A stretch of DNA of 64,000 bases, from the NCBI GenBank assembly GCA_963575745.1, contig CAUYUJ010000234.1:1-64000 (forward strand), given 5' to 3'. This document shows positions 2,218 through 20,866 of this stretch, piece after piece. Numbering within the stretch: the stretch's first letter is position 1; each line of letters opens with the position of its first letter. The position numbers and the translations under genes are program-made. This stretch comes from Prorocentrum cordatum. Its lineage: Eukaryota. Below the pieces are notes generated by a model. It saw only the letters and a list, made by a program, of their open reading frames with translations, was not told where the DNA came from and did no database searches.

Positions 2218-2220
<3 letters not shown>

Positions 2221-2584
2221 GGACAAGTAGGCGGACCAGGGTCCGTCCGCGAGGCGCACTGCAGTGCGACAACTCGCCAAACACTATTTGCGGCGGTGCA
2301 GCCTTGAGATACGAGGGCGGGCAACAAACCCCCTCCCCCGGCGCAATGCGACAGACGCTACAGACGGCGGACAGACGGTGAAGATCTCACGTGTCAGACC
2401 GCGTGACGAAGAAGGCCCCAACAAGAAAGGCGACGTGCTGACACGTTGCTAGGCGGCTTGGCAGACCGCCAGTTGGGCGCTTGGCCGCAACGCGGCGCGC
2501 AGGGACGGGGCACCCCCCGCCCCCACGCCCTGACACCGTGGACGCGGGGCCACGCGTGCACACGGGCAGGCAGAATGGGGGAGA

Positions 2585-3727
2585 TTAGCGCGGGGCTCCA
2601 GGCGGAGCGCCGCGGAGCGATGACAGCATAGCATGGAGGGTGAGTGGCGGCGCAGCACCATCGGGCGAGGGCGTAAGCAGCTCGGCGAAGGCACGCCCGG
2701 CGCGGTGGAGGCGCTGGAGCAGAGGGCCTTGACGGGCATGAGCAGCGGCAAGGTCGGCGGCGAGAGCAGCACACCTCTGCTGAAGAGCGGCCATAGACTG
2801 GGACAGCTCGGTTTCGCGGTCGGTGAGGGGCGGCTGCTCAGTGCCTGCGGCCGCGGGCCTCGTGGCAGGGACGAGGTCATCGGTGCGCCTGGCCAGGTGG
2901 TGGACTAGCGCAGTACGGCGCTCCGTGCGCTGGCGGCCGTCACCCTTGAGAGGCGACTGGAGGGTAACACGCGGCCCCAGGGCTGGAGCCGCTAGGGCCA
3001 CGCCCCGTGAGGTCGGAAGAGCCGCATCCTCGCGCCCAGCAACACTGGAAGCGTGGACGGGGCGCGACGGCCTGACTGGCTCGGTGCCCTGCGGGGGGGC
3101 TGGAGCCGCCCCCGCGGGCTGGCGCTGGTGGGGGGACGGAGTGGGTGGCACGGTAGGACCAATCATGATGCCGTACGAGGGCTCGGAGGTCGGCCGCGTG
3201 GTCGGGTGGCGTCTCGATGGGGCGGCATCGTCGGCAGCGTGGAGTGTCGGCGGGGCGTCGTCTATGCTGCCACTCAGTCCGAGGGGATCAACCAGGTCAT
3301 CGTCGGCGTCTTTACGGTGAGCGACATCATCATGTGGGTGCGATGTCGCTCTCGGTGGCGGAGTCGCGGTGGGCGTCGAGAGGTTGCCCGACGGGGCAGG
3401 GTTGGCGCTGGCTGGGCCGTCGTCCAAGAAGTCAAATCCCCCGCCAAAGCCGAACGGGTCGTCCTCCTGTTCATCGAGCATCGCCCGTTGGGCCTCGGCC
3501 CAGAGCTCATCCGGGTCTTGCGGGATGAATGGTCCAGCCGCGGGAGGTGCCTGGTCCGACAGCAGGGGGTTCGGTTCCATTTTGCTGAGTTCCGCTGCTG
3601 TAAACCCAGCCCTGCGGTGTGGGAGCGGCAGAGTACGGTGTCTGCGCTCGTAGATAGCGACAGCGACCCCATGAAAAAAAAAAAAATTTAACAAAAAAAA
3701 AATAAAAAAAGACAAAAAAAAAAAAAA

Positions 3728-3768
<41 letters not shown>

Positions 3769-17264: not shown

Positions 17265-18135
17265 TCACCTGGTGCCCACGCCGCGGCGCACGGTATGAGC
17301 CGTGCTCGGATCATCATCAGGTGCCAGAAAGCGGGGTCCTCCTCGGGTTCGCCCCTGGCGCACAGAGGGGCAGTGGGACCCGTGGGGCTAAAGCGGGGCA
17401 CGACAGCGGGGCTGAAGCCGCCACTGCGTGCCTGGGCCTTGCCAGCGGCCCCGTCGAGGCTGTGCTGCACGACGGTCGAGGACAAGCTGAGGACAGACTG
17501 CGATGCATGTGTCGTAGTTGACGAGGGCGTGCTCGTAGGAGACATGCTGGTACTCGCCGTAGCCGTCGTAGTAGCCGTCGGAGTCCCAGGGGGGCAGCGC
17601 GTGGGGCGGGGGCCCTGGTGCTGCTCAAGCCAACGCTCGCGATGGCGCCCAGCGGCCCGGTGCCGCACGGACCCGCGGCGGCGGTGCTGTTCACGATCGG
17701 GTCCAAAATGGCGCAGTGATCGTATTTGTAGTTGCTGTCATCGTAAAGGTAGAAGAGCGTCCCACGTTCAGCGTGTCGCAGGAAAACCTCTCCTCCGTGC
17801 TGAGGCGCACCGCCTGAAGACGGGTGTGCTCCAGCTAGCGAGGGGAGGGCCAGGCTGCAGGCAAGGCGCCACATGATGGCGAGGCCTGGCGGGCGGCGCG
17901 AGCGATGAGCCAAAAGCTGCATGTCAGCACACGTCCTCAAATACCCCTGAATGCTCAAGTACATTGCAACAATCACGCCCCCTGCAAGACTACGGGTGTC
18001 CCTACACCAGATAGCTTGCGCGTGCTGCTGCCAAAACAGACATGAGGTGACAAGAAAGAGATTCGACGCGAAGAGGGGAGAGATGCCTCTGAAGGCGCTT
18101 CCTCGGAGGGCTGAGGCGGGCTCTCTGAGGCACCT

Positions 18136-20725
18136 TCAATAGGGTTCCTGGGTGGCCCGACCCTGGTCCTTGCCTTTGTCGGCCCCTGGGGGCCCCGTCC
18201 CTGGGGTGACCTGGCCTGGCTGGTCGATCCAACCGCAGGCAGCCACGGGTTCGGCGGCCGCTGCAGCTTCCTCCTTCTTAGTTTCCAGAGTGGCCACTTG
18301 TGGCAGGTGGATGGTGCCTCCCGTGAGGGGCCCGAGGAGGGTCTGGATGTCGCCGCGCAGTGCAGCGGCGTCGGCGGTTGCCGTCTGTTGCTGGGTGACG
18401 ACGGTGGCAAGCCCCCGTTCCAGCCCTGAAACGTGCTCCGTGAGTGTGGCCTGGGAGGAGAGAACGCCCGCAAGCTGCACCTGCATGTTAACCACCGTGT
18501 TGGCTAGCAGCTCGTGCTGCTGTTCCATGTGCTGGATGCGGGTCGTGGCAGCATCGGGCGGTTTAGAGGCCGATGCGAAGCGCTCGCCGAAGGTGTTGAG
18601 TTCGTGGGAGGCCACGCTGTATTCATCACCTGATGGGAGGATCTCGACGTCGACGACGTCGCCTGGTACTTCGGCGGCTGTGGCAGCGTCGCCTTCGGTG
18701 TGGCCCCCACCTTCTGCCGCCGCCGTGCCAAGCCAGGAGTCATGGCCACCTGGTCCTGGGGCGGCCATCGGTTCAGCGGCTCCGTCCGTGCCGTGCGGGG
18801 GTGCAGGAGCTGCGGCCTGGGGCGCAGGGTGACCTTGCGTGCGGCGTGGCGTCACGTTTCCCGCTGGAGGAGCGGTGGCGCTTGGCTGAAGGCTCCTCCT
18901 TGGGGGTCAGGAGCGGTGCGACGCCCTTGCCTTTGGGCGTGGCAGTCATAAGGTCGTGGAGGTAGGGGCTCTGGGCCGCTTTGGTGAGGAGTGTGCCGGT
19001 GGCGGGGCTAAAGCCGCCACCACCTGCTGGCGGCGTCACAGGCTCTGTGATGGTGGTAGGCGTGACGATGGTAACGTTGTCCCGCTTCGGCACCACCTCA
19101 GCCAGCGGGGCCTCGGTGATGCTCCACGGGATGGGGCACCCCGCGACCTGCACCGTATAGGTGAGTGGGGGCCGATGAGCGCGCACTAAGGCAAACAGGG
19201 CCGCAGTGGCTGGGTCCCAGGCGGTGTGGTAGACCTCACAGTCCCATTTAACGGACGGGCCCGTGAGAGTCTTGGCGAGCTGGGTCAGCGTGGCGTGACG
19301 TGCCGCAATGCCAGTGATGCGGTAGCGCGTCTTGGCGAGGGTAGCCTCGCAGCCTCGGATGCTGACAGCAGCAGCCTTGGCGACGTCGGACCCCCGTGGA
19401 ACACGGATCCCCAGTAGGCCTGACTTGCCGTGCCTGATGACTCCCAGGGCCTTGAACTCCACCGACTTCTGGAACGCGTCTGCCATCGTGATGGGCTGGT
19501 CCACAGGGAACCAAACAGTCTGATACTTGTCGGCGGTGGGCTCGTCTGCACCTACATTGCTGAGGTCGTAGGTGGCACCGAGTTGCCCTGATCCCGCCAG
19601 GACCTTGTCGACCGCTTGGAGACTGACGCCGAAGGTGGCAGCCAGGGACCTCTTTCCGACGCCCGATCCAAACCTGCCTAGGCTTTTGCAGGGTTCGAGG
19701 ATGGTGACGGCTTTAACGTTGCCGTGGAAGAGGGCCTTGAAGGTGTCCTGGAGCTGACTATCGAGCTCCTGGCGGCGAGCGTCTTTCTTGGACTCCCTGT
19801 GCTTTTGGTTTTGGCGCGCCTTGTCCTGTGGAGCGGAGTCCCCTCGAAAAGGGCCCTTGGCGCGTGGGCCACCGTTCACGGGGGCACCTCCCGAGAACTG
19901 GTCCTCGAAGGCCTGGTGCATGGAGGGGACTGCGGCAATGGCCTCGGTCTCGTGTATGGTCGCCCGAATCCAGCAGACGTGGTCAGCAGGGTCGATGGTG
20001 GCGACGGCTACTTTTTCCGTGCAGGCGACCTCCTTGGTGCCCAGCTGGTACACGGTCACGGGGACGTGCGTGTGGACCACTTTGGGCGCCTTGGGGTGAC
20101 GCTTCAGGACGGGGACGGCGAGCTCGGTACCGGCGTAGTTGTCGTTTTTTGGGCCCATGACAGCAATCGCGAGCTGACCCGTGGCTCGCTTGCCCTGCTC
20201 GAGGTGGTGTTGCAGCAGCCGTTCACCGCTCTCGTAGTCGTGGAGGCTGATACTGGGCTTGCACGTCTTGCCGTCGTCAGGAGATGTGGGTTCGGCGAGG
20301 ACAGGGACCTTCCAAAAGGCCGGGTCCAAGGCGATGAATTGGGTGTCCGCAGCCTGAAGACGTGCGGAAACCGCTGGTGGGTGTGATGTGTCACCGCCAA
20401 TGCGCTTAGGCTTACTGCGCTGGTGATGATCAAGCGTGTAGCTGATCTGGTTGGCGGCGCACATGCGGATCAGGGCGCTGCCAAGCTTCTTCGTGTTGGA
20501 CTTGTGCATGTCGTACATTGCCTGGAGCTCGTCCGCGTTCAGTTCGGCAAGCCCGTTGTAGGCGGCCGTGGGGCGGTCAGACCCCGCTTGCTTGAACGCT
20601 GCGATGCAGTCCTGCTTGCGTTGAAGGAGGGACCCTTCAGCAGCAGGGCGCGTGGGACGGGAGCTCGGAGGCTGCTTAGAAGAGCGACGGCGCCCCGGCT
20701 TCTTGGGGGCCATTGCTGCGGGCAC
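18136..20725 (-). CDS. ORF1-like protein of the large LINE, with one frameshift near 18850
   Basis: The 650-aa ORF 18773-20725 overlaps the 18136-18855 ORF. It lies at the 5' end of the element and has an RRM-like segment (RYRITGI...LAKTL...KWDCEV) and a heptad-rich coiled coil near the C-terminus. Confidence 0.7.
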
Positions 20726-20865
20726 TCTGGTGTGGAGAGGTGACGCGAATCAGTAGGGTCCTGCTGGGGCCCCTCCGGTCTCGCGAGGCCTGGGAGTCTG
20801 ACTCCGAGGCGGGGCGCTTCGCGTCGCGGCTGCGGTCTGAGTGCAGGGCACTCTCGGGCCGAGAC

Positions 20866-20866
<1 letters not shown>

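Follow-up and report, generated by a model that had tools for sequence, protein, structure and literature searches.

Several LINEs of the APE type are known to insert into microsatellites, among them Kibi, which targets TC repeats, and Koshi, Dong, Waldo, and Mino (PMC3812793, in the sections consulted). According to the same sections, the Kibi-type LINEs are animal elements of ordinary size and are referenced to work on R1-clade and other sequence-specific non-LTR elements. In green algae, the Zepp L1 LINEs insert into existing copies, which results in arrays with 5' truncation (PMC8226300, in part). The Dualen/RandI LINEs combine an APE with an RLE and RNase H (PMC4640811, in part).

We analyzed a window of 64,000 nucleotides from Prorocentrum cordatum (contig CAUYUJ010000234.1, positions 1 to 64,000). 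Positions 2219-20866 on the minus strand very probably represent one decayed, dead full-length APE-type non-LTR retrotransposon with two ORFs (copy 1). The element spans 18,648 bp, or 16,257 bp net of three later insertions, which agrees with the original prediction of a giant, ~16-kb LINE. No terminal repeats (LTRs) were found by self-BLAST of the window, and the other LINE hallmarks seen were simple-repeat (CT)n 3' tails and a 5'-truncated copy (copy 2, at 29382). Like the Kibi-type LINEs (PMC3812793, in part), the element is an APE-type LINE located in (TC)n/(CT)n and bordered by this repeat on either side, but it differs from them in its ORF2 of about 4,300 aa, an extension containing a predicted ADP-ribosyltransferase (ART) domain, and an RNase H. 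It resembles Zepp and Zepp-like elements in array structure, namely head-to-tail arrays enriched in 5'-truncated members (PMC8226300, in part), whereas the shared target in our element is the (CT)n tail; a large ORF2 extension is not reported for Zepp in the consulted part of that paper.

Copy 2 (21152-29382, minus strand) lies upstream of copy 1 in head-to-tail order with only its own (CT)n tail in between, and is 5'-truncated inside a conserved module, domain X. Same-strand self-BLAST matches between copies 1 and 2 were 2102-3479 versus 21033-22410 (85.4%), 3300-3673 versus 22403-22773 (86.9%), 3773-8716 versus 22775-27719 (89.8%), and 8815-10472 versus 27722-29382 (88.5%), with the homology ending precisely at 10472/29382. 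Because these pairs run to 10472/29382, copy 2 includes the ~2.1-kb distal part of the sequence upstream of pol (8349-10472), as had been claimed. In copy 2, the 1,986-aa frame for APE-RT-CCHC-RNase H (27480-21520) is intact, and there is a single frameshift (27359-27480). In copy 1, three insertions interrupt ORF2, which also contains several frameshifts and one or more in-frame stops (near 6218). A retroposon-like insertion of 2,025 bp is nested at 15241-17265 (plus strand); it has a (TCA)n end, is surrounded by 9-bp target duplications (15232-15240 and 17266-17274), is flanked by residues 156/157 of the relative P0048, and contains ORFs for which no Pfam family was found. A second insertion inside ORF2, A-rich on the sense strand, occupies 14745-15003 (259 bp; flanked by residues 232/234 of P0048), and a 100-nt homopolymer (A on the plus strand) at 3674-3773 is missing from copy 2. 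Thus, the nested insert noted earlier is present, but it consists of two separate insertions (15241-17265 and 14745-15003) rather than one.

Both copies have (CT)n on both sides, at 20867-21151 and 2054-2218 for copy 1 and at 29383-29546 and 20867-21151 for copy 2. The 3' tail of copy 1 (2054-2218, minus strand; TRF period 2, 81.5 copies) adjoins a 366-nt 3' UTR (2219-2584, minus strand) that terminates in ...CCTACTTGTCCGAT, and the final ~140 nt of this UTR show ~95% identity across copy 1, copy 2, and an independent contig, L001. The (CT)n-rich tail of copy 2 (20867-21151, minus strand) abuts the 5' end of copy 1, whose 5' UTR (20714-20866, minus strand) opens with AGTCTCGG, and the 5' junction of copy 2 is formed by a (CT)n/(CCCT)n plus T83 tract (29383-29631, minus strand). 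In L001, an element 3' end is followed by ~87 bp of (CT)n, AGTCTCGG, the 5' UTR, and ORF1, in this order, and the element begins at the same base as copy 1, after its own (CT)n. The occurrence of the repeat on both sides was read from three junction sets, those of copy 1, copy 2, and L001 (5' side). Because both flanks of copies 1 and 2 are (CT)n, their target duplications are unreadable.

ORF2 of copy 1 extends over 2585-17964 (minus strand; ~4,300-4,330 codons without insertions) and ends at a TAA stop (2585-2587). Following ORF1, the first ATG in frame lies at 17964, and a conserved ATG is at 17874. The interval between ORF1 and pol had been described as mostly open, and 84% of its sense strand indeed lies in frames of at least 250 aa; the longest stop-to-stop frame is 1447 aa, whereas 200 mononucleotide shuffles gave 272 on average and 437 at most. 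However, the proposal that this interval is a large third coding region for an accessory protein does not fit the relatives P0007 and P0035, which continue the same frame into what follows. P0007 (580 aa, 60% identity) covers 11633-10740 and 10749-10084 in one open frame, crossing both the frameshift near 10750 and the copy-2 truncation point at 10472, and P0035 (87% identity) crosses the frameshift near 10750 in one frame. In copy 1, the frame 11259-7075 runs from domain X into the APE endonuclease with no stop and is open across 10472. Because of the single frame in P0007 and P0035 and this stop-free run into the APE, this 7.5-kb interval is, as judged from reading frames, the N-terminal ~2,470 aa of a ~4,300-aa ORF2, and the element has two ORFs. 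Another relative, P0048 (471 aa), follows 17958-17584, 17434-17267, 15234-15004, and 14744-13950 in one open frame with both insertions skipped. Some relatives have N-terminal stretches unmatched in the window (e.g., residues 1-95 of P0015), which may reflect divergence in disordered linkers.

In copy 1, the 7.5-kb region and pol occupy two different frames, with an overlap at 10509-11259, a frame change is present in copy 2 as well (27359-27480), and a programmed frameshift or processing site would be compatible with the sequence, as expected if the region encoded a separate accessory protein translated independently of pol. Nevertheless, such a three-ORF element is unlikely, since the two frame changes are copy-specific and lie at different sites. 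The first (10749-10767, minus strand), which joins frames 14852-10509 and 11259-7075, is read through by P0007 and P0035, and at the second copy 1 stays in a single frame. In addition, no 2A-like NPGP motif occurs on the sense strand at 2-30 kb, and no protease domain was found by Pfam.

The two-ORF structure was also weighed against a chance chimera, in which a 5'-truncated pol copy (2219-10472) would lie beside unrelated coding sequence of another element or a host gene (10473-20866). Copy 2 stops at the equivalent of 10472 and the window holds just one full-length copy, both in keeping with a chimera. However, P0007 has a single frame across 10472, P0035 and P0048 span other junctions, and the copy-1 frame is open through 10472. 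Copy 2 is truncated within a conserved module, and its truncation point adjoins (CT)n, the pattern expected of a 5'-truncated insertion; in addition, the dN/dS of the region resembles that of pol. A chimera is therefore largely refuted and scarcely credible. The assignment of 10473-20866 to the element was upheld, since the region is multi-copy and diverse elsewhere; rather than being single-copy or linked to other sequence, the junction-spanning relatives are all contiguous with the expected neighbor.

A search of 1.84 billion representatives returned 34 middle-region relatives at E ≤ 1e-3 (13 of these at E ≤ 1e-30), all of which map to 10084-14327, and the ORF2 start has two relatives in the database. 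The genome bin of L001 also contains a middle-region contig (L004; 90% identity, 474 aa open) and the pol contigs L002 (96%) and L003 (89-92%). The dN/dS values were 0.157 for the middle/ART region (versus L004) and 0.193 for pol (versus L002), indicating that the N-terminal extension is conserved and under purifying selection, with a dN/dS like that of pol.

ORF1 (18136-20713, minus strand) ends at a TGA stop (18136-18138) and contains one frameshift, near 18796. Its intact relatives are 853 aa long and map to 20713-18139; the database holds seven relatives at 46-95% identity. With a dN/dS of 0.073 (versus L001), these sequence comparisons indicate that ORF1 is a multi-copy family under selection. 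The protein has a C-terminal coiled-coil-like stretch and a fold without assignment. The adjacency of ORF1 and ORF2 (18136 to about 17990) is known from this copy alone, P0048, an ORF2-start relative, had no match in genome bin G001, and ORF1 did not significantly resemble the N-terminal region of P0006, a related LINE protein (best E of 0.54). ORF1 (18136-20866 with its 5' UTR) could accordingly derive from another element or gene, with the giant-ORF2 element beginning downstream of 18136. We consider this very unlikely: no repeat, tail, or composition break was found between the ORFs at 18136-17990, the 5' UTR begins right after (CT)n, the target/tail motif of the element, both here and in L001, and binning placed the contigs with ORF1, the middle region, and pol in the same genome bin. 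The membership of ORF1 in a multi-copy family under selection also argues against a separate origin.

The C-terminal ~1,850 aa of ORF2 is the usual machinery, comprising APE, RT, a CCHC motif, RNase H, and a low-complexity tail. The APE-type endonuclease (7504-8172, minus strand) was matched by Pfam Exo_endo_phos (PF03372) on the copy-2 protein P0001 (residues 103-325) with an E of 2.5e-5 and 24.6 bits versus a cutoff of 24.5 bits. It lies N-terminal to the RT in the same protein and aligns with the APE of P0006 (27% identity, E = 5e-16), a LINE protein of 2,834 aa found in a public read assembly that carries OTU protease, APE, RVT_1, and zf-RVT domains and is the only detectable pol relative. 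The RT core (5480-6121, minus strand) has IVDD at the YxDD position. In the RT region, residues 647-1350 of P0001 align with residues 1600-2295 of P0006 (E = 2e-22, 24% identity), with IVDD opposite the YVDD of P0006 within its Pfam RVT_1 span (1734-1948). The window RT gave no direct Pfam RVT_1 match and no PDB sequence match to any RT; its assignment comes from one distant relative, P0006, whose own RVT_1 match (26.5 bits) is below the Pfam cutoff of 29.6. A CX2C...HX4C zinc motif after the RT (4526-4633, minus strand) resembles zf-RVT, with a weak Pfam match (E = 0.26, P0001 1283-1318) and an alignment to the zf-RVT region of P0006 (E = 0.0038). The RNase H domain (3861-4286, minus strand) matched Pfam RNase_H with an E of 5.6e-5 and 23.8 bits, under the cutoff of 25.8 bits, and the copy-2 protein matched RNase H1 in PDB with an E of 0.09. 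The copy-1 coordinates of the APE and of the RNase H (P0001 1399-1540) were transferred from the copy-2 protein by alignment. The apparent order in the element is APE-RT-CCHC (zf-RVT)-RNase H, as would be expected for plant-type L1, but the zf-RVT and RNase_H matches are weak.

As in the element, the APE of P0006 is preceded by a long N-terminal extension (~1,100 aa), but this holds the OTU protease in place of the ART, SH3-like, and Cys-rich modules, and P0006 has no RNase H by Pfam. The element also resembles Dualen/RandI, which are large LINEs, known from GC-rich algae, that encode APE and RNase H in a single protein (PMC4640811, in part). Membership in Dualen/RandI was rejected, since their defining C-terminal restriction-like endonuclease was not seen after the RNase H, where 441 aa of low-complexity Ala/Pro/Arg-rich sequence contain 2 Cys and match no family.

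From its N terminus, the extension consists of conserved modules, acidic/Ser-rich linkers, two hydrophobic segments, the PARP-like ART domain, an SH3-like barrel, a Cys-rich module, domain X, and a long Ala/Pro/Arg/Ser linker. The two hydrophobic, TM-like segments (13821-13883 and 13488-13580, within 13488-13883, minus strand) have Kyte-Doolittle 19-residue means of 1.8-2.0, and that at 13821-13883 is conserved in P0015 and P0018. The SH3-like beta-barrel (11265-11573, minus strand) was predicted from a model of P0007 residues ~50-165 (pLDDT 72-89), whose best VIA-wide Z, a middling 6.9 (rmsd 2.9, 78 aligned), was to SH3b-type cell-wall-binding domains. The Cys-rich module (10887-11123, minus strand; 11 Cys in 79 aa) is possibly zinc-binding; it gave no family match and no confident structure model. 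Domain X (10135-10602, minus strand) straddles the copy-2 truncation point at 10472 and aligns in one frame with residues 333-554 of P0007 (61% identity); its structure model lacks confidence and its fold is without assignment. The linker of ~570 aa (8240-10083, minus strand; A 18%, P 14%, R 11%, S 9%) connects domain X to the APE and, in copy 1, shares the frame of both.

The predicted ART domain (12234-12737, minus strand) was modeled by AF2 with a pLDDT of 71.5 and a pTM of 0.69 and contains a WHGTR motif at 12567-12584. Among the Foldseek matches listed, all were PARP catalytic domains (best E = 1.4e-4, probability 0.99, TM 0.23/0.31). VIA Z values were 6.3-7.6, all below 8, the best being 7.6 (rmsd 3.3, 83 aligned), with 6.7 for PARP10/PARP1 over 135-145 residues, and in a Foldseek-independent VIA-wide search the best 15 of 50 rows were KptA/Tpt1 or PARP-family domains. 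The H, Y, and E columns (WHGTR, TYVS...AAWY, CEA) are conserved in most of the 19 members of alignment A1 and fall in model strand E106-112 ahead of helix H113-121, strand E145-148 ahead of helix H151-158, and strand E173-184. Like cellular PARP catalytic domains and Tpt1/KptA, the predicted fold has H...Y...E, as read from the alignment, in the expected secondary-structure elements; unlike solved PARPs, it shows no detectable sequence homology and is embedded in a retrotransposon ORF2. Pfam PARP (PF00644) matched two of the 19 members (best E = 0.0047), the ART domain of the window itself had no Pfam match, and no PARP accessory domains were detected. These results suggest that the extension holds a PARP-like ART fold with a conserved H-Y-E pattern, for which the fold evidence is middling.

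The domain could instead be a catalytically dead scaffold that binds a partner, a pseudo-PARP like TASOR or PARP13, or the fold call could be wrong. The low Z and TM values would fit either case, as would the lack of any match of the family profile to PDB sequences, the presence of the TASOR pseudo-PARP and PARP13 among the VIA-wide structural matches, and the replacement of H or E in a few relatives (P0013 and P0039). On the other hand, most members retain the H, Y, and E columns, the dN/dS is 0.16, two members reach Pfam PARP at E of 0.0047 or better, and the independent search was headed almost only by ART folds. A dead or misassigned domain is a serious possibility, although a conserved ART is the reading we prefer.

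We propose target-primed reverse transcription into (CT)n/(AG)n microsatellites as the mode of movement of the element. The RNA of the element would end in (CU)n, and because of this the tails of resident copies would themselves be targets. Such tail targeting would generate head-to-tail arrays with 5'-truncated members, as in the window and in L001. The role of the ART domain is proposed less firmly than the microsatellite targeting. PARP1/PARP2 and RPA promote L1 retrotransposition (PMC10760644, in part), and by analogy the domain may act where the element integrates, with a protein or a DNA/RNA end as the substrate of ADP-ribosylation. Such a modification could recruit or hold host repair factors, so that the element would provide in cis the role reported for PARP1/PARP2 in human L1. 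Alternatively, the domain might blunt a host defense.

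The first 30 kb of the window has a G+C content of 61-71%, and its minus strand carries very long open frames in the standard code. In self-BLAST, positions 2102-10472 (copy 1) matched 21033-29382 (copy 2, a 5'-truncated second copy) on the same strand with 85-90% identity in four pieces. The 3' ends of both copies read ...CCTACTTGTCCGAT followed by a (CT)n tail, located at 2054-2218 for copy 1 and at 20867-21151 for copy 2. Copy 2 breaks off sharply at 29382, giving way to a (CT)n/(CCCT)n tract and a T83 run (the 83-nt homopolymer at 29549-29631 adjoins the (CT)n at this 5' junction), and copy 1 goes on in open frame upstream of 10472. 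The 5' start of the element, AGTCTCGG at 20866, directly follows the tail of copy 2, and a leader of 153 nt precedes the ORF1 ATG at 20713. In 2219-20866, the longest frame reaches 1447 codons; across 200 shuffles, the mean was 272 and the maximum 437. Frames of at least 250 codons cover 84% of the sense strand. These results confirmed the coordinates and description in the original prediction. Its estimate of about 16 kb without the nested insert also held, as the element spans 18,648 bp and 16,257 bp without three insertions.

The element has two ORFs, ORF1 (853 aa) and ORF2 (approximately 4,300 to 4,330 aa). The predicted third coding region is not a separate ORF; it forms the roughly 2,470 residues before the APE endonuclease and is part of ORF2, and its relatives run in one frame across the junctions. 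Copy 1 is dead: it has multiple frameshifts, insertions, and a stop codon in frame near 6218. A homopolymer run of 100 nt (A on the plus strand, 3674-3773) is present in copy 1 and absent from copy 2. An intact frame of copy 2 (27480-21520; 1,986 aa) contains four recognizable parts: APE, RT, a CX2C...HX4C motif, and RNase H. APE matched Pfam PF03372 just over the family cutoff (E=2.5e-5), the CX2C...HX4C motif matched zf-RVT weakly (E=0.26), and RNase H, on a copy-1 fragment, stayed below the Pfam cutoff (E=5.6e-5). Against PDB sequences, the copy-2 pol protein P0001 gave a weak RNase H1 match alone (E=0.09). The RT of the window is divergent, without a direct Pfam match, and was identified because of a single relative, the distant LINE pol protein P0006, which was the sole relative among 8,000 scored candidates from a collection of 5.8 billion proteins. 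P0006 (2,834 aa; Pfam OTU, APE, RVT_1, and zf-RVT) aligned to the window in the RT region (E=2e-22) and the APE region (E=5e-16), with the window IVDD opposite its YVDD. The order APE-RT-CCHC-RNase H presumably resembles that of plant-type L1. The 441-residue tail after RNase H is low-complexity with two Cys and therefore shows no sign of a restriction-like endonuclease, and in this the element differs from Dualen. By the features tested, which were APE, RT, the simple-repeat tail, and 5' truncation, the element is a LINE.

To test whether 10473-20866 belongs to the element, 1.84 billion representatives were searched in full by HMMER with the middle region (10512-14102), which lies N-terminal to APE, as query. 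This yielded 34 proteins with an E value of 1e-3 or lower, 13 of them at 1e-30 or lower, with 34-92% identity; most were short fragments. All 34 mapped to 10084-14327 on the minus strand, and one extra short match at 51670-51756 was probably spurious. One relative, P0007 (580 aa), is a single open frame that aligned to 11633-10740 (in the frame 14852-10509) and then to 10749-10084 (in the frame 11259-7075), thus spanning the frame change near 10750-10767 as well as the copy-2 truncation point at 10472. That truncation point sits within a conserved module, domain X (10135-10602), and the frame change is also bridged by the relative P0035 (87% identity). The copy-1 frame 11259-7075 stays open from domain X to APE, across an intervening 570-aa linker rich in Ala/Pro/Arg/Ser; therefore, the frame change at 27359-27480 is specific to copy 2. 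Toward ORF1, the relative P0048 (471 aa, single open frame) aligned to 17958-17584, 17434-17267, 15234-15004, and 14744-13950, indicating that the frame starting just past ORF1 encodes the same protein as the middle region. The same alignment corrected the nested insert: the insertion at 15241-17265 is real, but copy 1 has a second one here, at 14745-15003. Thus, the assignment of 10473-20866 to the element was borne out at junctions tested with independent sequences, and the one between the ORF1 stop and the ORF2 start (18136 to about 17990) is the sole junction known from copy 1 alone.

No repeat or tail was found between 18136 and about 17990. Past the ORF1 TGA, ORF2 continues in the frame of ORF1, and its first ATG is at 17964. 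The TGA is followed by about 57 stop-free codons of the same frame into ORF2 (18136-17964), and the chance of the first 49 being stop-free is about 0.3. This stretch may reflect readthrough, reinitiation, or chance, all of which are compatible with it. No 2A-like NPGP-type motif was found on the sense strand in 2-30 kb.

The first insertion, 2,025 bp long and retroposon-like, lies on the plus strand, antisense within ORF2. Read on that strand, it terminates in (TCA)n and is bracketed by a 9-bp target duplication (plus-strand TCACCTGGT) at 15232-15240 and 17266-17274. Its G+C content is lower (approximately 0.55), its ORFs matched no Pfam family, and no second copy was found within the window. 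The second is 259 bp long and A-rich on the sense strand.

ORF1 itself (20713-18139, minus strand) is interrupted by one frameshift close to 18796 and terminates with TGA at 18136-18138. It has seven relatives with 46-95% identity, and the intact ones, 847-917 aa in length, share the C-terminal ...PY. Among prokaryote-labelled genome contigs, a scan identified one, L001 (1,818 bp), which contains, in order, the last 133 nt of the 3' UTR, approximately 87 bp of (CT)n, AGTCTCGG..., the 5' UTR, and ORF1. Its junction matches the 21152/20866 head-to-tail junction, with the 5' end at the identical base. Between L001 and copy 1, ORF1 gave a dS of 0.25 and a dN/dS of 0.073; therefore, the two diverged as functional elements and are not decaying orthologous copies, and we read this junction as recurrent. 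Along with L001, its bin (G001) holds one contig from the middle region (L004; 90% identity, open for 474 codons) and two from pol (L002 with 96% identity and L003 with 89-92%), and P0048 had no match in this bin. Against L004, the middle region had a dN/dS of 0.157; the value for pol, compared with L002, was 0.193. Purifying selection on the approximately 2,470 added residues matches that on pol in strength, and the extra modules therefore serve the element.

Within the extension, aligning 19 family members across 11802-12902 revealed a conserved core, WHGTR...PGPRRE...TYVS...AAWY...CEA...LIYPR. The AlphaFold2 model built from this alignment had a pLDDT of 71.5 and a pTM of 0.69. In a Foldseek search of PDB, all matches listed were PARP catalytic domains, and the best of them was the ADP-ribosyltransferase (ART) domain of PARP4 (E=1.4e-4, probability 0.99), with a low TM score (0.23/0.31). 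VIA-align on the Foldseek candidates gave Z scores of 6.3-7.6 to Tpt1/KptA and PARP1, 2, 10, 14, and 16. A search of 48,161 chains, independent of Foldseek, placed KptA, PARP1/2/3/4/10/13/15/16, tankyrase, and the plant SRO1 PARP domain on top (best Z, 6.7), with more distant ART folds ranked lower. At the sequence level, 2 of the 19 members reached Pfam PARP (best E=0.0047), and the 19-member profile A1 matched nothing among PDB sequences. The ESM Atlas gave a weak PARP hit for the ART segment (0.89-0.90), which served as a lead. When the alignment columns were placed on the model, the H, Y, and E columns fell at strand-then-helix, strand-then-helix, and strand positions, as expected for an NAD+ site. 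The extension likely contains an ART fold of the PARP-like group. We give the predicted domain an even chance of being catalytically competent.

With ORF1, the ORF2 extension, and intact relatives as queries, Pfam and NCBIfam searches stayed at noise level, and the extension-frame protein of the window (P0002) matched no PDB sequence. At P0002 895-924, a YbeY-like HxxH...H string (E 0.2-0.3) was rejected because it is not kept in the family. Modelling of P0007 gave low confidence (mean pLDDT 47.5), with residues approximately 50-165 alone usable; these resemble SH3b-type barrels, with Z scores up to 6.9. In addition, a Cys-rich module has 11 Cys in 79 aa (10887-11123), and two transmembrane-like hydrophobic segments lie at 13821-13883 and 13488-13580 on the minus strand (Kyte-Doolittle means of 1.8-2.0), the former kept in relatives P0015 and P0018. 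Such segments are unexpected in a LINE pol. A signal peptide at the ORF2 start was dropped as a candidate, since the hydrophobic stretch is not N-terminal if translation starts at 17964 and falls below the hydropathy threshold. ORF1 had been likened by eye to the N-terminal part of P0006, and the alignment was not significant; the ESM Atlas returned nothing for ORF1. The 3' UTR fold had a z of -1.11, with 27 of 200 shuffles folding equally well, and a special structure has no support. A terminal 6-bp hairpin is predicted there, and the 3'-terminal 140 nt or so is about 95% conserved, more than the coding sequence.

Among the sequencing runs listed, 20 of 24 contain part of 10473-20472 (best share 0.64; 15 studies), mostly labelled as marine or other aquatic metagenomes, and no RNA run with this region was among them. 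In JGI metagenome contigs, 219 pattern matches to the ART-region alignment A2 and 379 to the ORF1 alignment A3 yielded no confirmed case. The bin G001 is a 6.5-Mb metagenome bin labelled as a myxobacterium, with at least four short contigs of the element (ORF1, middle region, and pol), and related public database proteins are labelled bacterial or named "chromosome segregation ATPase". The contigs in this bin are most likely mis-sorted eukaryotic DNA, and pieces of the element are therefore a marker of eukaryotic contamination in such bins.

Elsewhere in the window, an open frame at 61516-63999 (plus strand), running off the window end, is LINE-like (Pfam APE at residues 439-611, E=9e-6); an Arg/Ser-rich stretch of more than 430 aa precedes its APE, and it has no detectable relation to the element. 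Repeats outside the element include an 8/89-bp TCATGGTT-based array (31338-32113), a block of approximately 46-bp direct and inverted repeats (33288-34178), and four copies of a 152-bp unit with 95-97% identity (60439-61056).

(CT)n flanks both copies on both sides and precedes the 5' end in L001. Other (CT)n/(AG)n-like microsatellites without an element copy are located at 57243-57449, 39677-39835, 41175-41341, and 44010-44330. We infer that the element would insert into (CT)n/(AG)n through target-primed reverse transcription, where the (CU)n RNA tail could pair with the nicked target. The tails of resident copies would then turn into targets, giving head-to-tail arrays. The mode of targeting would be like that of the TC-repeat-specific Kibi and other microsatellite-specific APE-type LINEs (PMC3812793), and the arrays would be like the self-targeting ones of Zepp (PMC8226300); both are likened by mode. 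The ART might ADP-ribosylate at the integration intermediate and so engage host repair or single-stranded-DNA-binding factors, a role we regard as less likely than not. The proposed role is drawn by analogy with human L1, whose retrotransposition PARP1/PARP2 and RPA are reported to promote (PMC10760644, citing Miyoshi et al. 2019). Alternatively, the domain may have a counter-defence role or act as a noncatalytic scaffold. We tentatively propose, as a reading less likely than not, that this LINE carries its own PARP-like ART to the integration site in an ORF2 of about 4,300 aa, together with SH3-like, Cys-rich, and hydrophobic modules. It would thus take the place of the host PARP/repair step during target-primed reverse transcription, or manipulate that step, and would home to (CT)n tails, so building head-to-tail arrays.

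The usual description of LINEs is that of minimal machines, 3-8 kb long with two ORFs, and the lineage studied here roughly doubles the usual size. P0006, a LINE protein from a public read assembly, is encoded by one ORF; its OTU protease lies some 80 residues N-terminal to APE, with about 970 more residues upstream, and large N-terminal ORF2 extensions with differing cargo may be a trait of the LINE branch that includes it. A word search of open-access full text returned no LINE- or TE-encoded PARP or ART, which is weak evidence of absence from print; among the papers listed, none combined "PARP catalytic domain" with TE terms, and related matches were host-factor papers. If the proposed reading holds, the domain would be the first ADP-ribosyltransferase encoded by a retrotransposon, and the ORF2 protein would rank among the largest known for LINEs. 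The fusion of a PARP-like domain to APE-RT would open to direct testing how ADP-ribosylation and repair factors come into play at the nicked target, a topical question for L1, and the (CT)n tail-to-head arrangement would offer a simple model for the origin of self-targeting LINE arrays.
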